A DNA stretch of 64,000 bases from Candidatus Omnitrophota bacterium (GTDB lineage: Bacteria > Omnitrophota > Gorgyraeia > Zapsychrales > Zapsychraceae), in NCBI GenBank assembly GCA_050250375.1, contig JBFWOS010000003.1, positions 273,284 through 337,283 on the forward strand, in the 5' to 3' direction. Positions 1 to 22,979 of the stretch are shown here, piece after piece. The number at the start of each line of letters is the position of its first letter. Position 1 is the stretch's first letter. The position numbers were made by a program, and so were the translations under genes. Under the pieces are notes generated by a model, which did no database searches, had not been told where the DNA came from, and saw only the letters and a list, made by a program, of their open reading frames with translations.

Positions 1-938
1 ATCCCGACTTTTATGGCGCTGATTGCACGCATCAATTTTCTCAAGATTTCTTCCGTCTGTTTAGTCCGGATTAAAATCAGCCGTCTGGCGCAGGTGCAGC
101 GCTGGCCTGAAGTGATAAATGCAGACTGAAGGATCGTGTAACAGGCCGCTTTAATATCGGGAACATCCGAGACGATCAACGGATTGTTTCCTCCCATTTC
201 CAAAGCGAGGATCTTTTCAGGTCTTCCACCGAATGCGTGATGAATCGCCTGCCCCGTTTCAAAACTCCCGGTAAAAAATATTCCGTGAATGTCTTCGTGC
301 CCGCATAAGTCACGGCCGGTCTCTTTCCCTCCCTGGACAAGATTGATCACACCGGACGGGATCCCAGTCTTTTCCCATAACCGCATATACCGCTGTCCGG
401 TTAACGGCGTCAATTCGCTCGGCTTAAAGACACACGTATTCCCGGCTAACAGCGCCGGGACAATATGACCGTTAGGCAAATGCCCCGGCAAATTAAACGG
501 ACCAAGGACTCCAACGACACCATGGGGTTTGAAATAAGTGTGCGTCGTTTCATCTTCCCGGTTGATGTTCAATTCCAGGCACCGGTCACGATAGGCCTGG
601 ATGGATATCGGAACTTTATTCAGCATCGCGTTGATCTCCGTCATGGATTCCCACAACGGTTTGCCAGTCTCCCGGCTGATGGTCTGCGCGAAACTATCTT
701 TTTCTTCTTTCAGGACAATAACAAATTTATTCAGATAAACAATCCTCTGGTCAAGGGACAACATCGCCCAGCCCCGAAACGCTTCTCTCGCCGATAAGAC
801 GGCAGAACCGACCTGATCCGTGTCAGCCGAAGAAAATTGCGCCAGCAATTCATCCGTAGCCGGATTGACCGACATTACCGGACTCCCGTTGCCGCCTATC
901 CATTGGCCGTTAATAAATAGATCGTTTAATTCACTCAT
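1..938 (-). CDS. astD: succinylglutamate-semialdehyde dehydrogenase (AstD-like aldehyde dehydrogenase); N-terminal ~310 codons only, the gene runs off the window start
   Basis: Hand translation of the reverse strand from the ATG at 936-938 gives MSELNDLFINGQWIGGNGSPVMSVNPATDELLAQF..AREAFRGWAMLSLDQR..ISRETGKPLWESMTEINAMLNKVPISIQAY..HGVVGVLGPFNLPGH. This follows the E. coli AstD N-terminus block by block. GAGGGA lies ~8 nt upstream and the gene is immediately downstream of astA. It is absent from the ORF table because it is truncated by the window edge. Confidence 0.8.
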   Translation of the reverse strand, partial: MSELNDLFINGQWIGGNGSPVMSVNPATDELLAQFSSADTDQVGSAVLSAREAFRGWAMLSLDQRIVYLNKFVIVLKEEKDSFAQTISRETGKPLWESMTEINAMLNKVPISIQAYRDRCLELNINREDETTHTYFKPHGVVGVLGPFNLPGHLPNGHIVPALLAGNTCVFKPSELTPLTGQRYMRLWEKTGIPSGVINLVQGGKETGRDLCGHEDIHGIFFTGSFETGQAIHHAFGGRPEKILALEMGGNNPLIVSDVPDIKAACYTILQSAFITSGQRCTCARRLILIRTKQTEEILRKLMRAISAIKVG

Positions 939-949
939 CGTTCAGTCCC

Positions 950-1972
950 TCAGCCGCTGATGCTGGCAAAACGCACCTTGTCCCCTTCTTTAACTTTTAA
1001 CGCCTGCGCGATGTCTCTCTGGATCGTAATGCCTTTTCCATTCTTGATCAGTGTCCCCATGACCGCCCTGAACCGGTCAAGTCCGGTCGCATTGGCAATC
1101 AGATAAACGGATTGCCGGTTAATCGTCTGGACAATTTTAAAAACCTTCATCTCGCGGCTTTTCTTGACGGTACGAATGTTCCTGACTTTTGTTCCGACAA
1201 CCGGACCGGCTTCAAAAATGTCGATTTCATTAATAAACTTAAAATTCTCCTGGTTCAGCAGCCGCAACGCCGACTCGGTATCTTTATGGACCTGGCCGAT
1301 GGCTTTCTGGGCCGATAAAGGAAGGATCGGGATATAGATGGGATGCTCCGGAATCAAATCGGCGATAAAAGATTTATCTTCCATCACCATCAGATCGGCC
1401 TTCTTAAATTCCATTTCGAAAAAATGTTTGCAGACCGCGTTCCAGAACGGAGACCGGTCTTCATCGTCAAGAATACCCCTCATCTCGGCGATAACAAACT
1501 CCTCAAAACATTGCGGGTACTGGGCCATGAACAAAAACCGGCTCAATGATAACAGACGCCCCAGCCCCTTCTGGCGGACATCAGGACTTAAGAATAACGT
1601 TCCGATTTCACTCGGCCCGTTGTATTCTTTTTTCAGAACGAGATACTGAATCTTAATATTAACCCCTAATGTTTTTGATCGGTTTACCGCTGTTTTTAAT
1701 TCATAGGTATAAGAAGGTTCAAACCCGCCGACCTTCGACATGACGGCACAGGTCCCGACAACACGCCCGCTTTCAATATCTTCCATCACAAAAAAATAAT
1801 TTTCCCCGTTCGGTTTGGTAACGGCCTGTGAAAAATCATAAATAGATTTATCAATCCGTCGTCGCAAGAGTTTTTTATTATGTGGAAACGTGGTCAGGCC
1901 AGCCTTTGTGAGGCTGGACAATTTGTAGAGCTGCTCCAAATCCTTTTTCACGACCGGGCGTACGACATACAT
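950..1972 (-). CDS. astA: arginine N-succinyltransferase
   Basis: 340 aa. The N-terminus MYVVRPVVKKDLEQLYKLS..TLFLSPD..GLGRLLSLSRFLFMA..VIAEMRG..SPFW..IGQVH is co-linear with E. coli AstA (MMVIRPVERSDV..). Sits between a class-III aminotransferase and astD, as in astCAD. Confidence 0.85.
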   Translation of the reverse strand: MYVVRPVVKKDLEQLYKLSSLTKAGLTTFPHNKKLLRRRIDKSIYDFSQAVTKPNGENYFFVMEDIESGRVVGTCAVMSKVGGFEPSYTYELKTAVNRSKTLGVNIKIQYLVLKKEYNGPSEIGTLFLSPDVRQKGLGRLLSLSRFLFMAQYPQCFEEFVIAEMRGILDDEDRSPFWNAVCKHFFEMEFKKADLMVMEDKSFIADLIPEHPIYIPILPLSAQKAIGQVHKDTESALRLLNQENFKFINEIDIFEAGPVVGTKVRNIRTVKKSREMKVFKIVQTINRQSVYLIANATGLDRFRAVMGTLIKNGKGITIQRDIAQALKVKEGDKVRFASISG

Positions 1973-1976
1973 TGGT

Positions 1977-3356
1977 TTAGCCCTCCCTCAAGACTTGCCC
2001 GATGATCCGGGAAACATCATCAATATCTTCTTTGGTTACCGCCATCACCGGCATCAGGAATCTGACCCTGGCTGGATTAGCCCCGGCGGAAAACCCCATG
2101 ACGCCGTTGTCATAAAGCCGCATTAAAAATTCTTTGGTTTTCTGCGGACATCCGTCCTTGAACGTCATGCCGACCATGGCCCCTAAACCGAACGGCCCTT
2201 TAATCAGATCGGGGAACTGCCGGGACAGGTTTTCCAGATGGGACCGGAAATGATCAGATAGCTTTGATATCTTGCCCTCATCCCCCAAATAATTTCCGTG
2301 AAGCAGCTCCAGCAGGATGACTTTCCCGGCGTGTAAGGCCGATGTCGATGCCGTAAATGTCTGGCTCAATAATCCGGGCTTCGGGTTAAAGTCCCGGCTG
2401 AACAATGTCGCGCAGACCTGCGTCATCTTTCCGACCGTCACAACATCAACGTACGGATCAAGGCCGAAATACTGAAATGCGAATGCGTCCGTTGTCCGGC
2501 CGAAGGTCTGGATTTCGTCAATCATCACCGCCACGTTATTATTTTTTAAGACATCCATAATTGATTTAAAAAAGTCGGTCTGCCCCGGATAATATCCCCC
2601 TTCCCCCTGGATCAACTCAAAACACATCCCAGCGTATTCATTTCTATTTTTCCCGAGAAGTGAATTCAGCTGTTTTACAGCGGCCGCTGTGCTCTCTTCA
2701 GGATTGTTATGATCAAAAAATGGGATATAATCAACATTGATTGTTTGCGGAATCCCCTGACGGTATTCAGGTTTATCTGTCATTTGCGAAGTAGCGAGGC
2801 TCCTGCCGGTAAAACAATGGTTAAACGCAAGCAGTCGGTGGGCCGGTTCTTTTTTCTGAAATATAATTTTAAATGCATTCTCGTTGGCCATCGCCCCGGA
2901 GCTGGTTAGAAAACAATGCCCAAGACCGGCTCCATTCTTCTGAGCTGTTTTTAAAAGAAGCTCCATCACTTCAATGGAAGTTTGATCACATTGAAGGTTA
3001 CCCTGCATGACGGTGTCTTCAATCGCCGCGTCGATCCCGGCTCCTATTATTTTCGGGTGGCTGTGCCCCATCACGTGGACACCGATCCCGGTGATAAAAT
3101 CATACTTCACGCTCCCGTCCATCAATTCAACAAGCGCGCCCCGGCCGATACCGCTGGAAATATACGGATAAAAAAGCGGCCGTCCGCGCCATTCATTGAC
3201 CTTGTCCAGCCACTGGGCGTAACTCTTTTGCAGATTGATATCGCCTTTGCGGACCCTTTTTATTTTATTCTGATAATCAACCAAAGCATTGTGGATCAGC
3301 CGTTTGGCTTCTTTGATTCTGGGGTCATGGTTAAATTGTTCACCAATCGGTTTCAT
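1977..3356 (-). CDS. class-III (PLP-dependent) aminotransferase, putative succinylornithine transaminase analogue (AstC position) but longer and divergent
   Basis: 459 aa. Class-III motifs are present: GIGVHVMGHSHP, DEIQTFGRT, lysine-containing TVGKM. The position upstream of astA matches astC. It overlaps the upstream M20 gene by 4 nt. Confidence 0.7.
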   Translation of the reverse strand: MKPIGEQFNHDPRIKEAKRLIHNALVDYQNKIKRVRKGDINLQKSYAQWLDKVNEWRGRPLFYPYISSGIGRGALVELMDGSVKYDFITGIGVHVMGHSHPKIIGAGIDAAIEDTVMQGNLQCDQTSIEVMELLLKTAQKNGAGLGHCFLTSSGAMANENAFKIIFQKKEPAHRLLAFNHCFTGRSLATSQMTDKPEYRQGIPQTINVDYIPFFDHNNPEESTAAAVKQLNSLLGKNRNEYAGMCFELIQGEGGYYPGQTDFFKSIMDVLKNNNVAVMIDEIQTFGRTTDAFAFQYFGLDPYVDVVTVGKMTQVCATLFSRDFNPKPGLLSQTFTASTSALHAGKVILLELLHGNYLGDEGKISKLSDHFRSHLENLSRQFPDLIKGPFGLGAMVGMTFKDGCPQKTKEFLMRLYDNGVMGFSAGANPARVRFLMPVMAVTKEDIDDVSRIIGQVLREG

Positions 3357-4591
3357 AATCGTTTATCCTTATTGATCCAGCGCGAAAGAAACAGGGCCGT
3401 TAACTTGGCCCGTTGAGTAAAACTGTCTGTTAGAACGTATTCATCGTTGCTATGGATATTCCCTCCCTGGACTCCCAGGGTATCGATGGTCGGCAGGGCG
3501 GCTGCGGCCAAACGGTTTCCGTCGCACACCCCCCCGCTTTTAGTCCAGTTTAAATCAAACTGCAATTCCCTGGCGCATTCTTTGACCAGGCCGAATAATC
3601 CTTCAGTATTCTTATCAAACGGTTTTGGCGGGGCACTGAACTTTCCATAAATGTCAATTTGCACATCCCGTTCGCTTTCCACGGCCCCGGTAATTTTATC
3701 AATCTCCCGATCAAACAACGTTTGCATGTCCGGGCTGTTATAACGGACATTCAGATGCGCCATCGCAAAATCCGCCACGACATTCGCGGCTGTTCCTCCA
3801 TGCATTTTTCCGACATTGACGGTAAAATCATCTTTATTCGAAAAGATATCTTTAACTCGGGTAATCCAGAGGGCCAGGGCTTCAATGGCGTTTCTCCCTT
3901 CCTGCGGATTCCGTCCGGCGTGGGCTGATTTACCTTTAACCACCACCGTAAAGTTTCCTGAACCTTTCCGCTGCGATACAAGATCCCCGTTCGGCAGGGA
4001 AGGTTCAAAGACCAGCCCCAGATCAAACTGGGCCGCTTCTTTCATCAACATGCCGCCGGATGAGGGTGAACCGATTTCTTCATCAGTGTTAATAATCACT
4101 TTCCATCCGAATTTTTCACGGAACGCACATTGTTCAACCGCTTCCAGGGCCTTAAGCATGACGACTATACCACCCTTGGCATCTGTTATTCCCGGCCCCT
4201 TGATGGTATATTCATCCATCGTCTGGCAGGTCTGAAACGGTCCATCCGGCATATGTACAGTATCCATGTGACAGACAAAAAGGACCTGTTTCGGGGCGAC
4301 CGGACGCTTGGTCAGCGTCAATGCAGGTACAACCCCAAACGATTCGGCTTCCCCTTTTTCATTAATCATTTCGTAGGAAGGTAATTCAACCGGCCTGACC
4401 TCTTCGCCAAAAACGGAAAATGATCGTGTGATTTCTTTGGACAATTGACTAATTCCGGCCGGATTGGACCCATGTGTATTAATATCAGACCATTTCCGGG
4501 CCAACTCCACCATGGCCGTTTTTTGTCCGTCCAGCCACTTTAGGATATCCGTCATTTTTTCCATACTCACCGGCCTGTCGTTGTCTTTCAA
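3353..4591 (-). CDS. M20-family metallopeptidase (ArgE/DapE/CPG2-like amidohydrolase), first gene of the AST-like operon
   Basis: 412 aa. M20 metal-binding signature pieces: CHMDTV (H-x-D), GITDAKGG, TDEEIGS (EE), GGNIHSNDEY. The table start at 4591 is a TTG sitting inside a terminator T-run. The first ATG (MEKMTDIL..., ~4564) is the more likely start. Confidence 0.75.
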   Translation of the reverse strand: MKDNDRPVSMEKMTDILKWLDGQKTAMVELARKWSDINTHGSNPAGISQLSKEITRSFSVFGEEVRPVELPSYEMINEKGEAESFGVVPALTLTKRPVAPKQVLFVCHMDTVHMPDGPFQTCQTMDEYTIKGPGITDAKGGIVVMLKALEAVEQCAFREKFGWKVIINTDEEIGSPSSGGMLMKEAAQFDLGLVFEPSLPNGDLVSQRKGSGNFTVVVKGKSAHAGRNPQEGRNAIEALALWITRVKDIFSNKDDFTVNVGKMHGGTAANVVADFAMAHLNVRYNSPDMQTLFDREIDKITGAVESERDVQIDIYGKFSAPPKPFDKNTEGLFGLVKECARELQFDLNWTKSGGVCDGNRLAAAALPTIDTLGVQGGNIHSNDEYVLTDSFTQRAKLTALFLSRWINKDKRL

Positions 4592-6497: not shown

Positions 6498-7952
6498 TTA
6501 TGTCTTAGTTTCTTCCGTAGAGAGTTTATTAATGGCTCCGGTCAGCAATTGATAATCCTGCGTTTTGACAACAAAATCATCCGCACCGGCGTTGGAAGCG
6601 TCGACGGAATAACTGGGCTGGTAGCTAGCACTGATCATGATCAGCTTAGCTTTCACATCTTTAATGCCTTTTATCTTTTTGCACGCTTCAAATCCGCTCA
6701 TATCTTTCAAGTGGGTGCTCAGAACCACCACATCCGGCTGTTCCTGCTGAATCAGGAGTTGCCCTTCTTTCAAGGTTTCTGAAAACAAGACTTCCCCTTT
6801 ATAGGTCTTCATCAAAGCATTACCCATCAGTTTGATCTCGTTGACGTTCTGGTCCAGAATGACAAACTTAAGTTTTTTATTTTTCGAGTTAAGGGCTTCT
6901 TTCAATTTCTGGCAATGCTGGTAATTGGCGTTTTCGCTGGCGGTTTCATAACTGATCAGATCGTCCTTGTACAAATTCGCCAGGCAGATTTCAAGAGAAT
7001 ACATCCCTTCCGTTTCACCGGCATCCAGCAATCCGCGTATTTCCTTAAAATCATTGCGCCGGATCAGATTTTGGACGGCCATCGTTCCAAGCATAATTTC
7101 CGTGGCCAGAATACGTTTGTTATCATCCTTGCGCGGCAGTAATGTCTGATAAATTATGGCAACGACATTCGAGGCCAATTGCGCGAGAATCTCTTCACGA
7201 AAACCCATCGGAAAAACAGAAACAATCCGGTTAAGCGTACCGATTGAGTCAGAGGCATGGATGGTCGTGATAACCAAGTGACCTGTTTCAGCCGTGGTCA
7301 ACGCGATACGCATGGACTCAAGGTCTCGCAACTCACCGATACAAACCACATCCGGGTCCTGACGCAGGGCATATTTCAGCGCGTTGGTAAAACTCTCCGT
7401 ATCTTTACCGACTTCCCGCTGGATAAAATAACTTTGTTTGGATTTATGATGATATTCAATCGGGTCTTCAATGGTGATAATCTTGCATTTCCGTTCCTGG
7501 TTGATCATGTCAATAATGCAGTTCATCGTCGTACTCTTTCCGCTGCCGGCCGTGCCGGACAAAAAGATGATACCTTTGCGCGTCTGTGCCAGTTTTTTGA
7601 CAATGGGATGCAGATTAAGCTCCTGATAAGGACGGATAAAGGCCGGCGTGATCCGAATGGCAGCGGCCATATTGCCTTCACTATAATGGATATTGACCCT
7701 TAACTGATACTTGTCCTGAAACGCATATGAAAAATCCAGTTCCTTGGTCTTGAAAAATATTCCTTTTTGTTCTTCCGAAAGCATATTCATCAGAAGATTC
7801 TGCAAAACTTCCGGGGTATAATGATCGCCCTCCATCTGGGTGAGATCCCCATGGATACGGAATATAGGCGCTTGATGCGCCAATAAATGGACGTCCGAGG
7901 CTTCCTTTTCTGTCGCGTATTCTAAGACTGAAGTAATTTCTGATATATTCAT
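6498..7952 (-). CDS. pilT: type IV pilus retraction ATPase PilT fused to a C-terminal degenerate receiver (REC-like) domain
   Basis: 484 aa. Residues ~1-350 contain the PilT/T2SSE core: Walker A GTAGSGKST, DPIEY, Asp box, TGHLV..T.H. The last ~120 aa (KLKFVILDQN..PDVVVLSTHLKDMSGFE..KLIMISAS..GADDFVVKT) follow the CheY-like fold order but have Ser at the phospho-acceptor position. Confidence 0.85.
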   Translation of the reverse strand: MNISEITSVLEYATEKEASDVHLLAHQAPIFRIHGDLTQMEGDHYTPEVLQNLLMNMLSEEQKGIFFKTKELDFSYAFQDKYQLRVNIHYSEGNMAAAIRITPAFIRPYQELNLHPIVKKLAQTRKGIIFLSGTAGSGKSTTMNCIIDMINQERKCKIITIEDPIEYHHKSKQSYFIQREVGKDTESFTNALKYALRQDPDVVCIGELRDLESMRIALTTAETGHLVITTIHASDSIGTLNRIVSVFPMGFREEILAQLASNVVAIIYQTLLPRKDDNKRILATEIMLGTMAVQNLIRRNDFKEIRGLLDAGETEGMYSLEICLANLYKDDLISYETASENANYQHCQKLKEALNSKNKKLKFVILDQNVNEIKLMGNALMKTYKGEVLFSETLKEGQLLIQQEQPDVVVLSTHLKDMSGFEACKKIKGIKDVKAKLIMISASYQPSYSVDASNAGADDFVVKTQDYQLLTGAINKLSTEETKT

Positions 7953-8033
7953 TTGTCTAACATTCCTGTTTCTTATTTTATGGGCTAATCCCGATTCCGT
8001 ACAGCATCCTTTTCAGATTTAATGACCGGGCTA

Positions 8034-8453
8034 TTATTCACTTTCTTCATGATCCAGATGATACGATTCCAGTAAAAAAGCCAGTGCCCTGCATGCGTCA
8101 ACGGTCGTAAAAATCCCGACCAACTGATCGCCTTTGACAATCATGGCGCTTCCGTAATGGTGTTTGGCCATTTCTTTGGCGACTTCATCCAAGGGAGTAT
8201 TCGGGTCGACCGAATAAGGCTGTTCGTGATAAATATATTTTACCTGAAGAGTCAATGGAGAGGCTTTGACGCTTCCCGCAGATTTTAAATCCCGGTCCGA
8301 TACTATCCCTACCACTTTATTGTTAATAACCACCGGCAAATGGCGGATATTATACTTCTTCATGATTTGCTGGGCCTCGGCAATTGATGTATGTTCATCA
8401 ATCGTGTAAGGCTGCTTGGTCATGAAATCCTTAACTCTGGGGATCATCCTCAT
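8034..8453 (-). CDS. CBS-domain pair protein
   Basis: 139 aa. Two CBS motifs (IRHLPVV..GIVSDRDL ; GSAMIV..LVGIFTTVDACRAL). A paralog lies at 22566-22979. Confidence 0.8.
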   Translation of the reverse strand: MRMIPRVKDFMTKQPYTIDEHTSIAEAQQIMKKYNIRHLPVVINNKVVGIVSDRDLKSAGSVKASPLTLQVKYIYHEQPYSVDPNTPLDEVAKEMAKHHYGSAMIVKGDQLVGIFTTVDACRALAFLLESYHLDHEESE

Positions 8454-8583
8454 ATCTCAACCTTTTCCAAACAATTGCTTTGTGGATCACAGACAACCTA
8501 CTAAGTATAAAATTAAATTTCTTAATATTCAACTGCCTTGAAAAATCTATCCGGTTGATTTCTTTTATATATGTTGACCGGGA

Positions 8584-8850
8584 TTACCCAAACAAATGCA
8601 ATAAAATGGCTATAATTGCTAATATAAATCCGTTAATGATCAGACATGTCGGGATAAAGACATCCCAATGGCGTATGGCCTGTGACATTTGTTGGGATAA
8701 TGTTAGGTTTCGAGGCCGATTAAGATCACGCTGAAGAATTTTTTCGTTGCAGTTTCCTCTCACCCACCAGATCAGGCCGATCATGATCATAAAAATACTC
8801 AAGAAAAAAACGGTATAAACAATAATCTGAACAGTTCTATGATCACCCAT
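8584..8850 (-). CDS. small hypothetical membrane protein (weak call)
   Basis: 88-aa ORF with two hydrophobic helices, same orientation as flanking genes. The competing plus-strand ORF 8480-8734 makes it ambiguous. Confidence 0.25.
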   Translation of the reverse strand: MGDHRTVQIIVYTVFFLSIFMIMIGLIWWVRGNCNEKILQRDLNRPRNLTLSQQMSQAIRHWDVFIPTCLIINGFILAIIAILLHLFG

Positions 8851-8909
8851 AACTTAAACCCCTCAGAGATACCGATAAGAACCTTTGGCGTTAAACAGGC
8901 AAAACGGGG

Positions 8910-9923
8910 TCAACGTTCTTCATAATCAAATTGATCATCAAAATCTTCTGTACCAATATCCGCGATTCTTTCACGTTCAAATGTGGCCACATGAAATATA
9001 GCGTCTCCCCGGTTGACCAGCGGTAATTGTGTGCGTCCGATAATAAGACCTTTTTTGGAAGCCCGGATTTCAATATTTTTATTCCCCAGAGGATCCGAAA
9101 TAACCCCTAAAAGGTCCCCCTGCTGAATAATCTTTCCCAATGCTTTTTTGATAATCAATATCCCGCTATGTTCGGCCCTGACCCAAAACCGCCCGTTGGC
9201 TGTCAGGGATTCCGCTTTTTTTTCTTTTTTCAAGGCAGATATCATCCCGAGAGCGCCCATGACCGACAATATCCCTGATATACCGCAGCGGATCACGTCT
9301 TCGTCATACCTCAAGGCCTCTCCGCCTTCAAACACAAGAAAAGGAAGATTTTTGCTCGCCGCCACTTTCCGCAACGAACCTTCAATGATCGTCGCATTGA
9401 TGACAACCGGTACGCCAAACTCATGCGCCAACCGGTTTGTGACCTTGTCGTTCAAACACGCTCTGACTTGTGGAAGGTTTGTCCGATGGCAGGAACCGGT
9501 ATGAATATCAATCCCATGGGTGGAATTTTCCAATATTTCCGTCACGAATAGATGGGCGAGCCGGGCGGCCAGAGAACCATTTTTTGATCCGGGAAAACAC
9601 CTGTTTAAATCCCTGCGATCCGGCAAATAACGGGTTAAACTGTTAAAACCGAAAACATTGACGATCGGGACGGCAATCAGTGTCCCTTTTAATTTTTTCA
9701 GAGCCCTGTGGCTAATCAACCTTTTGATGATCTCAACACCGTTAACTTCGTCCCCGTGAACCGCCGCGCAGACAAATAACCGCGGGCCGTCTTCTTTTCC
9801 CCGGATAACCTTGACCGGTATGCTGATTTCCGTGAAATCAAAAAGTTTGGCGACAAAAAGATTGATGTCTTTGGTTTCACCGGGCCGAATGGTTGTATCA
9901 CCGATAATAATGTCGTTGTTCAT
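8910..9923 (-). CDS. succinylglutamate desuccinylase/aspartoacylase (AstE/AspA) family zinc hydrolase, RimK partner
   Basis: 337 aa. Zn-carboxypeptidase-like motif AAVHGDEVNG, later HTGS..E. Overlaps the upstream rimK stop by 4 nt. Confidence 0.75.
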   Translation of the reverse strand: MNNDIIIGDTTIRPGETKDINLFVAKLFDFTEISIPVKVIRGKEDGPRLFVCAAVHGDEVNGVEIIKRLISHRALKKLKGTLIAVPIVNVFGFNSLTRYLPDRRDLNRCFPGSKNGSLAARLAHLFVTEILENSTHGIDIHTGSCHRTNLPQVRACLNDKVTNRLAHEFGVPVVINATIIEGSLRKVAASKNLPFLVFEGGEALRYDEDVIRCGISGILSVMGALGMISALKKEKKAESLTANGRFWVRAEHSGILIIKKALGKIIQQGDLLGVISDPLGNKNIEIRASKKGLIIGRTQLPLVNRGDAIFHVATFERERIADIGTEDFDDQFDYEER

Positions 9924-11092
9924 GCTTTTTTTAAAGACGACTTTCTTTTTTCATGTCTGTTCATGGAAACAATCGACTTCATGTTCTCCAGTTTTCCAAA
10001 ACACAGGAGTGTGTCGTTTTCCATAATTTCCCGGGTTGCTTTCGGGTTGGATATCGTCAGGTGATCCCGTTTAATACTCATAACAACAATATCTTTTTCC
10101 CTGAACCCCGCCTGATCCAAAATCTTTCCCTTGATATCAGAATTTCTTTTGATCTGAATCTCGGCGACCCCGTACCCTTTATCCAGGGTTAATCTCTGGC
10201 GTAAATCGATTTCCGGAAAATGGCTCTGTTCTTCCAGAAATTCGACCATAGCCCCGGCGACATCCTTGCCCGTTGCCCGTTCAATGCCTTCCAGGCCGGG
10301 TGAAGAATTGATCTCGACAATCTGCGGGCCGTCTTTACCTTCAAGCATATCCACCCCCGAAACATTCAGTCCCATGATCTGTGTGGCACGGATGGCCATC
10401 CGTTCATATTTTTCATCCAGCTTGACCGCTTCAACCTTTCCACCGCGGTGCACGTTGCTGCGGTATTCGCCTTTTTGAGCAATACGCCGCATGGCGGCAA
10501 TGACTTTACCTCCGGCGACAATAGCGCGAATATCCCGCCCCTTGCTCTCCTTCACAAATTTCTGGATCAGGACGTTCTGCCGCGTGCTGTGCAGGGTCTC
10601 AATAATCGCTTCGGCCACTTTATTCGTCTCCGCCAGGATCACACCGACCCCTTGAGTCCCTTCCAGCAGCTTAATGACGACCGGGGCTCCCCCTAGCTCT
10701 TCAATGGCTTTTAGAATGGATGACGGCTGTTTAACAAAAACGGTCTGCGGAAACCCGATATTGTGCCGCGCCAGCAGTTGCAAGGCCCTGAGTTTGTCCC
10801 TAGCCGTTAGGATACCCAATGAAGAGTTCAGGCAAAAAGTCCCCATCTGTTCAAACTGACGAACCACCGCTGTTCCGAAAAAAGTGATGGAAGCCCCGAT
10901 GCGGGGAATAACAGCGTCGTAATGTTTCAAATGTTTGTTATGATAACTGAGGTCGGGTTTGCCCTGTTGAACATTGATGGAAAAGTGCATCGTATCCAGC
11001 ACACGAACATCATGTCCTCTTTGCTTGCAGGCTTCAATAAGCCTTCGGGTGCTAAATAACTTCGCCCCGTGCGATAAAATAGCGATCTTCAT
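9920..11092 (-). CDS. rimK: RimK-family ATP-grasp alpha-L-glutamate ligase with a C-terminal TrkA-C (RCK_C)-like extension
   Basis: 390 aa. The first ~300 aa are co-linear with E. coli RimK (MKIAILS..AVIPRIG..LRQFE..KLVEGTQG.GV.LAE..EINSSPGLEGIE). The extra ~85 aa YGVAEIQIKRNSDIKGKILDQAGFREKDIVVMSIKRDHLTISNPKATREIMENDTLLCFG match the TrkA-C pattern. Confidence 0.85.
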   Translation of the reverse strand: MKIAILSHGAKLFSTRRLIEACKQRGHDVRVLDTMHFSINVQQGKPDLSYHNKHLKHYDAVIPRIGASITFFGTAVVRQFEQMGTFCLNSSLGILTARDKLRALQLLARHNIGFPQTVFVKQPSSILKAIEELGGAPVVIKLLEGTQGVGVILAETNKVAEAIIETLHSTRQNVLIQKFVKESKGRDIRAIVAGGKVIAAMRRIAQKGEYRSNVHRGGKVEAVKLDEKYERMAIRATQIMGLNVSGVDMLEGKDGPQIVEINSSPGLEGIERATGKDVAGAMVEFLEEQSHFPEIDLRQRLTLDKGYGVAEIQIKRNSDIKGKILDQAGFREKDIVVMSIKRDHLTISNPKATREIMENDTLLCFGKLENMKSIVSMNRHEKRKSSLKKA

Positions 11093-11163: not shown

Positions 11164-12231
11164 CTAAAACCAGTTCTGTTTTTTAAAATAAGCAATCATG
11201 CCTCCACCCAGACATACCATGACGCCAAGCACGGCAAAATAGGCGTAAGGCCATTTTAATTCAGGCATGATCTCAAAATTCATCCCGTAAATTCCCGCAA
11301 TAAAGGTTAACGGGATAAAGATGGCGGAAAAAATCGTGAGCACCTTCATGATTTCATTCATCTTGTTGCTCATAACCGATAGATAAATATCATGCATGCT
11401 GGATAAAATATCCCGGTAAGATTCAATGGTATCCATAACCTGGACAACGTGGTCATAAATGTCTCTCAGAAAAATATCAATCTTCTTGCTGACGAGTTTT
11501 GATTCGTTGCGCAACAACGAATTAATCACTTCCCGTACGGGCCAAATTTGTTTTCTTAAATAAACCATACTGCGTTTCAGATAGTGAATCTGATGGACCA
11601 TATCGGGCTTTATATCTTTTGTCAAATCGTCTTCCAGAGCTTCAATATTACTCCCCAGGTCTTCCAGGACAATATAATAGTTGTCAACGATCGCGTCCAT
11701 CAGCGCGTAGGCCAGGTAATCCGAGCCCATGGTCCTGATGCGGCCTTTTCCGTTTCGGATACGCTCCCGGACAGGATCAAAGACATCTCCCGTATCTTCA
11801 AGATATGAAATGACATAATTTTTCCCCAGGATCAAACTGATCTGCTCCGAAACAATTTCGTTCTTCTGCTCTTTGTCCCGGTAAAGCATCTTGAGGGTGA
11901 TAAACAGATACTCGTCATGTTCTTCCAGTTTGGGCCTATGCCCGGTATTGGCTATATCTTCCGACACAAGCACATGAACCCCGTAATAATCGTTAATCGT
12001 CTTGAGTAATTCTGTGTCATGCACCCCGTCTACATTGATCCAGGTCACGGAACTCTTATCACGGAACTCAAAACACTCTTCCACGCGATTCACTTCTTTT
12101 TCTTCAAAACCCTTCGGGCTGTAGTCGATAACATTTATTTTAACGGGATGATCTGTCTTTTTACCGACATGCGTCAATGTCCCGGGTGCAGAACCTGGAG
12201 TTTTTGAACCCAGTTTAATAAATTTTGGCAC
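11164..12231 (-). CDS. corA: CorA magnesium/cobalt transporter
   Basis: 355 aa. Two C-terminal TM helices with the signature YGMNFE..MPEL. Confidence 0.85.
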   Translation of the reverse strand: MPKFIKLGSKTPGSAPGTLTHVGKKTDHPVKINVIDYSPKGFEEKEVNRVEECFEFRDKSSVTWINVDGVHDTELLKTINDYYGVHVLVSEDIANTGHRPKLEEHDEYLFITLKMLYRDKEQKNEIVSEQISLILGKNYVISYLEDTGDVFDPVRERIRNGKGRIRTMGSDYLAYALMDAIVDNYYIVLEDLGSNIEALEDDLTKDIKPDMVHQIHYLKRSMVYLRKQIWPVREVINSLLRNESKLVSKKIDIFLRDIYDHVVQVMDTIESYRDILSSMHDIYLSVMSNKMNEIMKVLTIFSAIFIPLTFIAGIYGMNFEIMPELKWPYAYFAVLGVMVCLGGGMIAYFKKQNWF

Positions 12232-12247
12232 TATCTACCCCTTTACT

Positions 12248-12442
12248 TTATGATCTCCAATATTTACGGCCGAAAAAATAACCGGCGGCGAATCCGACCG
12301 CCAGCACTATGGCGAAGAAAATAATACATGACATACTGATCTTCCAGAAAAGAACATGAAAGGTCACGACCTGTGTATTCTGCAGCAGGATAATCCCGGC
12401 CAAAATCGCTAATATACCGATGAATACAACTTTAGGCTTCAC
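12248..12442 (-). CDS. small hypothetical membrane protein (two TM helices)
   Basis: 64 aa. Overlaps the mscS stop region by a few nt. Low confidence. Confidence 0.35.
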   Translation of the reverse strand: MKPKVVFIGILAILAGIILLQNTQVVTFHVLFWKISMSCIIFFAIVLAVGFAAGYFFGRKYWRS

Positions 12443-13313
12443 TGTTTTTCCCTTTGATTAATTTTTCAATAGCCGGGGTCATCTTCACATGAATATCTCT
12501 TTGCGGGAACGGTATCTGGACATCTTCTTTACGGAAGGCTTCATCAACCATAAAATTGATCTGGCTTTGCATTAAAAATTGCTTTTTGGGCTCATCCGTC
12601 CAGACCAGAAGTTTAAAATTTAGGGAGGAATCACCGAATTCCAGAAACCGGACTTCCGGCGGCGGATCCTTTAAAACATCCGGGTGATCATTCGCCACCT
12701 TTAGAAGCGTTTCTTTAACCTTGCGGACATCCGAACCATATGCCACTCCAACCGGACAGTGCAAACGCACCCGCGGATCATCAATGGACCAGTTAATGAC
12801 GGGATTTTCAACAAATTTTGAATTTGGCACGATAATAATAATATTGTCTAACGTCTTGATTTTTGTCGCCCGCATATTAATGCTGATGACCTGCCCCACC
12901 TGTCCGTCCACATTCACAAAATCGGCTACCGCCACGGGCCGTTCAATCAGCAATATCAGTCCGGCCGTAAAATTGGACGTAATATTCTGCAAACCCAATC
13001 CGATCCCAACCCCCAAAAAACCGAAAGCGACGGCCAGCGTACCGAAATTGAAACCGATCGTCTGCGCCGCCATAACCACCCCAAACAAAATAATCAAATA
13101 ATGCAGAATCCTATTGATGGCATAAATAACCGGAGTGGAAAATTTCGAATTTTTAGATAACCGCGCTGAAATCAACCTTTGAACGAAAGACGAAAGCACT
13201 GCGGAACCAAAAAAAATGATAACTGCCGCGCCGATCCCGCCAAACGTCACCGGTGTTGTGCCAATATGAACAATCGGTTTATTAACCAGTTCAATAATGT
13301 ATTGTAAGTCCAT
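12432..13313 (-). CDS. mscS: small-conductance mechanosensitive channel, MscS family
   Basis: 293 aa. N-terminal TM helices, pore-lining helix with GLGLQNITSNFTAGLILL, followed by the beta/alpha-beta cytoplasmic domain. Confidence 0.8.
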   Translation of the reverse strand: MDLQYIIELVNKPIVHIGTTPVTFGGIGAAVIIFFGSAVLSSFVQRLISARLSKNSKFSTPVIYAINRILHYLIILFGVVMAAQTIGFNFGTLAVAFGFLGVGIGLGLQNITSNFTAGLILLIERPVAVADFVNVDGQVGQVISINMRATKIKTLDNIIIIVPNSKFVENPVINWSIDDPRVRLHCPVGVAYGSDVRKVKETLLKVANDHPDVLKDPPPEVRFLEFGDSSLNFKLLVWTDEPKKQFLMQSQINFMVDEAFRKEDVQIPFPQRDIHVKMTPAIEKLIKGKNSEA

Positions 13314-13925: not shown

Positions 13926-15458
13926 GTGTTAACCGGGAATAGTTTTGGTATAATTGGTTCATACTCCATGAGAATAACAACTCTAAAGCAAAAAATCAGT
14001 CTATTTTTTCTTGGTATCTTCCTGAGCATTATTCTAATAGAATCACTGCTTACCTTGGGAGGGATAATTTTTCTATCACTCCAGGAAATACGCAACTGGT
14101 CCTCAGTCAGACACGGAGACTCCTTCCGAATCCTTTGTCTGGGTGAATCAACCACCGCGATTGATGACGGACACTCATATCCCCGCCAAATGGAAACGAT
14201 ACTTAATCAGAGAAATATTGGAATTACGTTCAGCGTGATTAATAAAGGCATTCCTGGAATCTACACAGAAGGTATCCTCGCCCGACTAAATGAAAACCTT
14301 GAAAAATATAAACCCGACCTGGTAATAACCATGATCGGAATAAACGATCCGCTTACGGAAGAAAAAAATCATTTCTTACATTTAAGACGCTTCAAAATCT
14401 ATAATCTGGCCGTTTATCTGCTTAACACCATGACCAACAAAAAAAAATCCTTTGGTTCAGGTACAATAGCGGCGGGAGAACTCATGATTGACCCTGAAGA
14501 AGGCAACCCAACCTTTCTTGGGGTCGCTCCGGAAAGCTTTGAATACTATTCCTCCGGAGAAAAGTTCGTATCGCAGGGAGATTTTGAACAAGCGAAAAAA
14601 ATGTATGAATTATCCATTCAGGCTGACCCCCGCAATCATGAAGCCTACTCGGCATTGGCCGGCTGTTATATCTATAGCCAAAATTATGTTAAAGCAGAAG
14701 AAATATATGAAATAAACAAAAGGAACAACCCCGAAAATATTGATGTCTACGATGATCTGGCTGAAATATACTTTTTACAAAACAGGTATGAAGATATGGA
14801 AAGAATTCTCCGGGCCGCCCTCGATCTCAACCCCTTTTATGTAAAAGCATATTTACAGCTCGGACATTTTAACCGTCTTCGGGGAGAATTCGGACGGGCT
14901 GAAAAAATCCTGAATGAGGCGTTATTAAAAATGCCTTCCATATTCCATGGAGATATCTATACAGAAATGTCTCTTCTGTATCTGAGTATGGGAAAATTCC
15001 AGGAAGTTGAATATATTCACAAAAAGGCACTGAAAGTCAACCCAGACAATGACCATCTGTACGGAATGATAGGCGTATATCATCTAGAGTCTGGAGATGA
15101 TAAAACAGCGGATAAATATTTCACTTTGGCCAACCGGATCAGGGAACGGCATTATAACCCGCAGACAGCCTTAAATTATCAAAAAATAAGGTCTATTCTC
15201 GCCCAAAAAGGAATCAAACACGTGGCCATGCAGTATGCCATGCGTGATGTTGAACTTCTTAAGAAAATTCTGGGGAATCACCACGATATCTTGTTTGTCG
15301 ATAACCGGCCGGCCTTCCTTCAGGGCATAAAAACTGAAGGGTATAACCAGTATTTTACCGACAGATTCGGAGGAGACTTCGGACATTGCACTGAGAAAGG
15401 TGACCGGTTGATTGCTGAAAACGCAGCGAACGCGATTATTGAACGGTATTTTAAATAA
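13926..15458 (+). CDS. membrane-anchored SGNH/GDSL-like hydrolase fused to TPR repeats
   Basis: 510 aa. N-terminal TM, then ILCLGESTT (GDS(L)-like block) and GINDPL (block III-like), then at least four TPR-like repeats (AKKMYELSIQADPRN.., NPFYVKAYLQLGH..). The start may instead be the internal MRITTLKQ.. Met. Confidence 0.6.
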   Translation: MLTGNSFGIIGSYSMRITTLKQKISLFFLGIFLSIILIESLLTLGGIIFLSLQEIRNWSSVRHGDSFRILCLGESTTAIDDGHSYPRQMETILNQRNIGITFSVINKGIPGIYTEGILARLNENLEKYKPDLVITMIGINDPLTEEKNHFLHLRRFKIYNLAVYLLNTMTNKKKSFGSGTIAAGELMIDPEEGNPTFLGVAPESFEYYSSGEKFVSQGDFEQAKKMYELSIQADPRNHEAYSALAGCYIYSQNYVKAEEIYEINKRNNPENIDVYDDLAEIYFLQNRYEDMERILRAALDLNPFYVKAYLQLGHFNRLRGEFGRAEKILNEALLKMPSIFHGDIYTEMSLLYLSMGKFQEVEYIHKKALKVNPDNDHLYGMIGVYHLESGDDKTADKYFTLANRIRERHYNPQTALNYQKIRSILAQKGIKHVAMQYAMRDVELLKKILGNHHDILFVDNRPAFLQGIKTEGYNQYFTDRFGGDFGHCTEKGDRLIAENAANAIIERYFK

Positions 15459-22565: not shown

Positions 22566-22979
22566 TTGATGAGTAAAGAAATCCCACCTATTCAGAAATA
22601 TATGACCTGTAATCCGCATTTTATTACCGCTGAAAAAACAATTATTGATGCGCAGGACTTGATGAAAAAATATTCGATCCGTCACCTCCCGGTTTTGCAT
22701 GAAGGGAATATCATTGGAATCATTTCTGACAGAGATTTGAAACTGGCTATGAGCCTGATACAGGCCGATTCATTGGTCAAAGTAGGATATATCAGTCATG
22801 ACCATGTCTATCAGGTTGAACCTGACTCCCCCATCGACAGAGTTGCCCAAGCGATGGCGGAAAAACATTACGGTTGCGCCGTAGTCGTCCAAAATAACAA
22901 ACTCGTCGGAATTTTTACAACCGTCGATGCCTGCCGCGCATTATCGGACATCAGCCGCCAAAAATTCCACCACAATTAA
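22566..22979 (+). CDS. CBS-domain pair protein (paralog of 8034-8453)
   Basis: 137 aa. IRHLPVL..GIISDRDL and LVGIFTTVDACRAL blocks are shared with the other copy. Confidence 0.8.
   Translation: MMSKEIPPIQKYMTCNPHFITAEKTIIDAQDLMKKYSIRHLPVLHEGNIIGIISDRDLKLAMSLIQADSLVKVGYISHDHVYQVEPDSPIDRVAQAMAEKHYGCAVVVQNNKLVGIFTTVDACRALSDISRQKFHHN

Follow-up and report, generated by a model that had tools for sequence, protein, structure and literature searches.

The window analysed here, a stretch of 64,000 nucleotides (64 kb) of a metagenome-assembled genome (MAG) of Candidatus Omnitrophota, carries on its minus strand a gene for a RimK-type alpha-L-glutamate ligase with a C-terminal extension, immediately followed by a gene for a zinc hydrolase of the AstE/AspA family (Table 1). 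Both belong to a run of minus-strand genes that encode, in order, an MscS-type mechanosensitive channel, a small LapA-domain protein, a CorA magnesium channel, RimK, the hydrolase, a small open reading frame (ORF), a CBS-pair protein, and a PilT-like ATPase fused to a receiver domain; no terminator-like site lies on this strand between the CorA gene and the end of the hydrolase gene. RimK-type enzymes extend a C-terminal glutamate with further alpha-linked glutamates; the acceptor is ribosomal protein S6 or free glutamate, the latter giving poly-alpha-glutamate. Only a few bacterial enzymes are known that, like RimK, remodel the ribosome post-translationally. In Pseudomonas, RimK is regulated by cyclic di-GMP (c-di-GMP), RimA and RimB, and this control affects colonisation and virulence. 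A sequence-only reading of the locus had proposed that the ligase and the hydrolase form a poly-glutamate ligase and deglutamylase pair, the ligase with a possible small-molecule-sensing domain.

Table 1. Features of the RimK-hydrolase locus and its surroundings (positions in the window).
Feature	Coordinates	Strand	Basis
rimK-type alpha-L-glutamate ligase gene with C-terminal extension	9920..11092	-	ORF, 390 aa; NF007764
RimK pre-ATP-grasp domain, residues 1-94	10811..11092	-	PF18030 (Rimk_N), 133 bits
RimK ATP-grasp catalytic domain, residues 97-285	10238..10804	-	PF08443, 198.6 bits
Conserved linker FPEIDxRQRLT..GYG, residues 291-308	10169..10222	-	conservation in relatives; predicted flexible
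TrkA_C / RCK_C domain, residues 309-374	9971..10168	-	PF02080; profile against solved structures; AlphaFold2 and Foldseek
Lysine/arginine-rich disordered tail, residues 375-390	9923..9970	-	composition; pLDDT <50
ATGA overlap of rimK stop and hydrolase start	9920..9923	-	sequence
AstE/AspA-family zinc hydrolase, RimK-associated subfamily, 337 aa	8910..9923	-	PF24827, invariant catalytic residues
CorA Mg2+ channel gene directly upstream of rimK	11164..12231	-	PF01544, 267 bits; 71-bp gap
MscS-type mechanosensitive channel gene upstream	12432..13313	-	PF00924/PF21082/PF21088
Hydrophobic ORF, 88 aa	8584..8850	-	no Pfam match
Stand-alone CBS-pair protein	8034..8453	-	syntenic with rim genes in Omnitrophota relatives
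PilT/T2SSE-type ATPase fused to C-terminal receiver domain	6498..7952	-	syntenic in Omnitrophota relatives
AST-like partial cluster: AstA, class-III aminotransferase, M20 peptidase	950..4591	-	AstA: PF04958, 406 bits

The predicted ligase scores 340.9 bits against the NCBIfam RimK equivalog NF007764 (cut-off 331) and 267 against TIGR00768 (cut-off 143). Its core is co-linear with RimK of E. coli K-12, as had been read from the sequence, being 47% identical over 290 residues with zero gaps (BLASTP), and is 53% identical to RimK of Pseudomonas (7QYR). The window protein shares its two-domain ATP-grasp core with the S6 glutamate ligase RimK of E. coli and of the Pseudomonas RimABK system (together represented by PDB 4IWX, 5ZCT, 7QYR and 7QYS). 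RimK is described both to glutamylate S6 and to make poly-alpha-glutamate (PMC11957791; PMC12239564). None of the solved RimK structures reaches beyond residue 290 of the query, whereas the window protein continues for about 100 residues through a linker, an RCK_C domain and a basic tail. Relatives of the window likewise have RimK in an operon with RimB, but the window system differs from RimABK in lacking RimA, in lacking RimB within the window, and in adding an AstE/AspA-family partner that is not mentioned in the RimK literature examined.

The extension measures 100 residues (291-390), somewhat more than the approximately 85 first estimated. Its best-conserved part is the linker (FPEIDLRQRLTLDKGYG in the window protein), in which P293, D296, Q299, G306 and Y307 are invariant and R298 and R300 are kept in at least 90% of relatives; this strongly conserved segment is nonetheless predicted to be disordered, with a predicted local distance difference test score (pLDDT) below 50 at residues 292-305 of the full-length AlphaFold model. 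The domain that follows matches Pfam TrkA_C (PF02080) in the window protein with 27.5 bits, barely over the cut-off of 27. The assignment to RCK_C is firm despite this marginal score, because TrkA_C is matched by all 48 aligned relatives (E <= 0.001, best 5.4e-13), because a profile of 46 extension sequences matches solved RCK_C domains (KtrC 7.7e-6, KhtT 6.9e-5, MthK ~2e-4, KtrA 2.3e-4), and because an AlphaFold2 model (pLDDT 83) retrieves the MthK RCK, PH0236, KhtT, KtrC and BusR as top Foldseek matches with probability 1.00. The TrkA-C fold proposed from the sequence is thereby borne out. The best superpositions are with c-di-AMP (cyclic di-AMP)-bound KhtT (root-mean-square deviation, rmsd, 1.4 A over ~71 residues, 24-25% identity) and with KtrC (28% identity in Foldseek).

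The window domain thus shares its fold, and similarity at the profile level, with the RCK_C domains of KtrA/KtrC, KhtT, BusR, CpaA and MthK, but it sits on a soluble ligase whereas those belong to channels, transporter subunits and transcription factors. It also differs from a canonical RCK module in having no paired RCK_N Rossmann lobe: Pfam finds no TrkA_N (KTN) match in the window protein, and the RCK_C domain comes after the ATP-grasp core. The subfamily has invariant residues of its own in the extension, namely E311, S318, D334, N349, R354 and C364 (in LLCFGK). A search of a representative library with the extension profile returned mostly RimK fragments, followed by membrane proteins with multiple TrkA_C domains, and showed no other enzyme fused to the linker-RCK_C module. 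The tail has lysine or arginine at 6 of its 16 residues, and K+R averages 40% over the first 20 tail residues in 88 relatives. A basic tail is only in part an ancestral feature of RimK, since E. coli RimK ends in ...EYCLKTGG; plain RimKs adjoining the hydrolase end in KPHKTRTKGKG-like tails.

Solved RCK_C proteins bind regulatory ligands, either c-di-AMP (KtrA/KtrC, KhtT, BusR) or Ca2+ (MthK), a precedent that argues against a purely structural role of the extension. Such a role, in which RCK_C and linker would serve oligomerisation or docking (to RimB, the hydrolase, the ribosome or the acidic product) instead of sensing a ligand, is unlikely, though a real possibility: the best-conserved segment is predicted to be disordered, a frequent property of binding motifs, the domain is followed by a basic tail, and in the solved structures RCK_C domains are obligate dimers (PMC8517857). 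The 17 of 64 fused-ligase loci that have neither RimB nor the hydrolase nearby (see below) are a further point against it. The c-di-AMP receptors of this kind (KtrA/KtrC, KhtT, BusR, CpaA) are marked by a hydrophobic pocket where the two subunits of the dimer meet, a conserved Pro, and an Arg adjacent to the pocket. In the profile alignment, R331 and P350 of the window protein occupy the columns of KtrC R169 and P189, residues with a presumed contact role as in KtrA, and Val occupies the column of a polar pocket residue that is Thr in BusR and presumably Asn in KtrA. The residues of the BusR c-di-AMP pocket are listed in PMC8517857. The same hydrophobic pocket pattern is also present in Ca2+-gated MthK, and pocket residues therefore cannot separate c-di-AMP binders from MthK.

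Fusion of RimK to RCK_C is not rare. Among the best 120 database matches (61-99% identity, ~390 aa), all but one have TrkA_C among their precomputed Pfam domains, and those with names are called plain S6-glutamate ligases. A genome scan, in which each species was represented by a single genome, gave at least 595 relatives of RimK, and all 80 of the best genome matches have the extension. They represent about a dozen phyla, including Omnitrophota, Nitrospirota, Planctomycetota, Myxococcota, Spirochaetota, Gemmatimonadota, Acidobacteriota, Chloroflexota, Verrucomicrobiota, Actinomycetota, Desulfobacterota and Gammaproteobacteria; cultured carriers are Desulfopila sp. IMCC35008, Aeoliella straminimaris, Pelagicoccus sp. 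and Rhodopirellula spp. The Desulfopila strain (locus L087) unites genes for MscS, CorA, RimB, the fused RimK, the hydrolase and MgtE. Neighbour joining of 136 RimK cores separates the 88 fused forms from the 48 plain ones, each group being a pure clade, which requires a single state change; the sample is biased, because its plain forms come almost entirely from hydrolase-adjacent loci. By these results the fusion is ancient and maintained, and it defines a whole multi-phylum clade that is routinely annotated as plain RimK. No description of the RCK_C fusion or of the AstE-like partner was found in the RimK literature examined, although an earlier one may exist. One genome (OM182 bacterium, CP121333.1; locus L082 of the survey) has a plain RimB-RimK-hydrolase-CorA-MscS cluster at 148-4452 and a solitary fused RimK at 8001-9194, 3.5 kb from that cluster; one form is therefore not simply a substitute for the other.

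The product of the downstream gene is an AstE/AspA-family enzyme with an HGDE motif, as originally identified, scoring 122 bits against PF24827 (AstE_AspA_cat; cut-off 25). The motif itself (H56-G57-D58-E59), H141, E199 and N107-R108 are invariant in sets of 120 and of 35 homologues. By homology, the histidines and E59 would be zinc ligands, E199 the general base, and the NR motif the binding site of a free carboxylate, a pattern that predicts carboxypeptidase-type chemistry on an acidic substrate. Five arginines (R98, R104, R154, R185 and R249) are likewise invariant, with R147 kept in at least 90% of relatives, and would suit a polyanionic substrate. No signal-peptide-like hydrophobic stretch was seen by eye at the N-terminus. 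The protein is 100% identical to an NCBI entry, its nearest solved structures are 3CDX, 3NA6 and DoeB (6TWL/6TWM) with E values of ~1e-18 to 1e-19, and its closest characterised relative is DoeB, which acts in the breakdown of ectoine, an osmolyte.

Although the hydrolase has the same catalytic domain and the same pattern of zinc ligands and catalytic glutamate as AstE, aspartoacylase and DoeB, it falls far below the curated cut-offs for these enzymes (in the case of AstE 18.3 versus 305.65 for TIGR03242 and 21.1 versus 170 for NF003706; further, 29.7 versus 180 for NF002601 and 89.1 versus 402.7 for TIGR02994) and belongs to a subfamily of its own (identity across phyla of 55% or more), which travels with RimK. 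It is thus not the AstE of the arginine succinyltransferase (AST) pathway, nor does its gene lie in an AST operon: the AST-like cluster, with the arginine N-succinyltransferase AstA encoded at 950..1972, stands at the start of the window with several unrelated genes in between. That the gene is not part of the AST operon is as the sequence-only reading had it. Because that cluster has no AstE-family gene, its M20 enzyme may carry out the desuccinylase step. The reaction common to AstE, aspartoacylase and DoeB is hydrolysis of an N-acyl bond, which frees an amino acid whose alpha-carboxylate is unblocked, and N-succinyl-glutamate, the substrate of AstE, closely resembles Glu-Glu; with this chemistry and this likeness, the step from the family to a glutamate carboxypeptidase would be small.

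At the junction, which reads GCATGAAC (GC-ATGA-AC), the TGA of rimK and the ATG of the hydrolase gene share 4 nt, the overlap noticed at the outset. Short overlaps or gaps predominate at the junctions in relatives, and several of these junctions, together with that of the window, look consistent with translational coupling. Of 64 genome loci of fused RimK with flanks of sufficient length, 34 have the hydrolase gene within 400 bp and 44 have a RimB-like gene; both partners occur in 35, the hydrolase alone in 3, RimB alone in 9, and neither in 17, so that the fused ligase can evidently stand alone. Viewed from the side of the hydrolase, in 41 metagenome loci with enough flank, RimK adjoins the subfamily in 35, from distant lineages, and RimB is also present in 32, but only 2 of the 35 adjacent RimKs have the extension. 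The hydrolase is therefore dedicated to RimK at large, chiefly to the plain form, and pairing and fusion are separate features. The expectation that the gene pair would be kept in relatives is upheld by both surveys, whereas its framing as a partnership of two, one of them a fused RimK, is not: the usual unit is the trio RimB-RimK-hydrolase. These counts bear equally on the notion that the adjacency is coincidental and that the hydrolase serves an unrelated catabolism of N-acyl amino acids. The characterised members of the family are catabolic and an AST-like cluster lies in the same window, but the presence of RimK alongside in 35 of 41 loci from distant lineages, the recurrence of stop/start codon overlaps, and the scores far under the AstE, aspartoacylase and DoeB cut-offs make this very improbable.

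The window itself has no RimB: tblastn found no match to a RimB-like (PF05618 retropepsin) gene anywhere in the 64 kb, and only 71 bp separate the CorA gene from rimK. RimB is present in the relatives L002, L008, L168 and L169. Of these, L002 and L008 (78-79% identity) have both RimB and the hydrolase, and L168 (88%), the closest relative examined, has RimB only, whereas the window has the hydrolase only; such complementary loss, among very few genomes of close Omnitrophota relatives, fits overlapping roles of the two enzymes. RimB is a retropepsin-like endopeptidase that strips glutamates from S6 tails and needs approximately five contiguous glutamates (PMC11957791), and it also stimulates polymer synthesis (PMC11957791; PMC12239564). 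A deglutamylase that opposes RimK was therefore already known, and the hydrolase would act beside it as an additional eraser, of the exo type; the requirement of RimB, an endo-deglutamylase, for about five glutamates leaves room for such an enzyme.

The favoured explanation, to which a probability of roughly 55% is assigned, is that the locus encodes a regulated poly-alpha-glutamate or S6 ligase with an RCK_C domain, together with an exo-deglutamylase partner. The RimK-type ATP-grasp ligase would write alpha-glutamate chains on S6 or on free glutamate. In this clade a conserved linker and an RCK_C domain stand between the catalytic core and the basic tail; RCK_C may dimerise between subunits of the RimK oligomer, as other RCK_C domains do, and may bind a ligand in the cytoplasm that reflects the ionic or osmotic state, thereby switching or tuning the ligase. 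The AstE/AspA-family enzyme would be a cytoplasmic zinc N-acyl-amino-acid amidohydrolase that acts as a carboxypeptidase, taking C-terminal glutamates singly off oligo- or poly-glutamate or glutamylated tails and regenerating free glutamate. Where RimB is present, it would make internal cuts in long tails and leave the fragments for the hydrolase to finish; because RimB is absent from the window, the hydrolase would be the only local eraser there. The domain identities, the conserved catalytic residues, the coupling of the genes and the neighbourhood counts are observed; the substrates, the ligand of RCK_C and the direction in which it would regulate the ligase are what we infer. The eukaryotic TTLL tubulin glutamylases (ATP-grasp) and M14 cytosolic carboxypeptidase deglutamylases offer an analogy, no more, in that an ATP-grasp glutamate ligase is there opposed by a hydrolase of zinc carboxypeptidase fold; both lineages and targets differ.

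Several observations weigh against this explanation. The S6 gene rpsF, the product of which would offer the C-terminal glutamate, is neither in the 64-kb window nor in any relative's locus that was fetched. The pocket residues of RCK_C are not diagnostic for a ligand, and Rfam detects no riboswitch around the operon or in nine related loci, so that no hint of a ligand comes from that side. In the full-length AlphaFold monomer the RCK_C domain is not docked on the core, and because the pLDDT of the linker is below 50 and the tail is disordered, the model gives no placement for it. The loci without either partner and the distance of the hydrolase from every curated equivalog, which bears on its substrate, count on the same side.

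A pathway of small molecules, in which the ligase and hydrolase would make and break a small glutamyl conjugate and not tails or polymer, is improbable. N-acyl-aspartyl-glutamate-like and citryl-glutamate-like compounds and a di- or tripeptide osmolyte are the candidates. Mammalian RimK-like enzymes make N-acetylaspartylglutamate and beta-citrylglutamate, aspartoacylase hydrolyses N-acetylaspartate, the hydrolase is closest to DoeB among characterised proteins, and the neighbourhoods have an ion and osmotic theme. Set against these points, the ligase core exceeds the cut-off of the RimK equivalog and shares 47-53% identity with RimKs of proven S6 and poly-glutamate activity, and most loci also have RimB, which depends on runs of glutamate. 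If the regulated ligase and exo-deglutamylase are indeed what the locus encodes, a phylum-spanning clade of RimK with a channel-type sensor domain would bring a different regulatory input to the same modification, and a dedicated zinc hydrolase would add the missing exo-acting eraser to the scheme of writers and erasers.

The CorA gene is syntenic with the rim genes in L002, L008 and L168 as well as in the window. In loci with long flanks, genes of CorA, MgtE, CNNM or MscS type occur in 15 of 45 fused-RimK loci and 9 of 28 hydrolase loci, many of them directly adjacent and on the same strand, whereas kinase and PP2C seeds in the same search found only two or three loci each. This linkage, in about a third of loci, seems to exceed chance, the expectation for random sites being a rough guess of a few percent. 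Channel or transporter neighbours, often on the same strand and at tiny gaps, were seen in L006, L008, L015, L036, L075, L082, L087, L147, L148, L151 and L157, rim clusters with and without the RCK_C domain from many phyla. No paper linking rim clusters to genes of Mg2+ transporters or MscS channels was found in the literature, and the recurrent association with Mg2+ and mechanosensitive channels offers a testable lead on the purpose of poly-alpha-glutamate or S6 glutamylation. Four loci, which represent three phyla and include two Spirochaetales MAGs, have a diadenylate cyclase (c-di-AMP synthase) gene no more than a few kb from the fused RimK (L004 9253-10461, L015 12125-13603, L025 2226-3494 and L075 10760-11959); in L004 and L015 a DHH-domain gene stands beside the cyclase.

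RimB, RimK, the hydrolase and the RCK_C domain could also be a device of ion and osmotic homeostasis, rather than, or besides, a modifier of the ribosome, in which glutamate is reversibly stored under the control of c-di-AMP or a cation. The chief counter-ion of the cytoplasm, free glutamate, would be held as poly-alpha-glutamate, a polymer that is osmotically inert and binds cations, and RCK_C would gate the ligase by c-di-AMP or a cation in step with CorA, MgtE, CNNM and MscS. The frequency of channel genes, the four diadenylate cyclase loci, and the inclusion of c-di-AMP-binding RCK_C domains among the nearest structural matches (by identity and rmsd) speak for such a device, as does the reported enrichment of rimK in brackish-water genomes (PMC10219603). 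The undiagnostic pocket counts against it. Gammaproteobacteria, among which fused RimK also occurs, are generally not known to synthesise c-di-AMP, a further reason to regard the device as quite improbable.

A few other features of the region concern neither the ligase nor the hydrolase. A defence-system reading was set aside, PADLOC giving no matches. The hydrophobic ORF downstream of the hydrolase gene occupies the slot of a Ser/Thr kinase and a PP2C phosphatase in the relatives L002 and L008. A second CBS-pair gene, 50% identical to the first, lies at ~22581..22946. On the plus strand, a GDSL-lipase domain fused to TPR repeats is encoded at 13926..15458 and is kept near the cluster in the 88% relative L168 (2139-3632).

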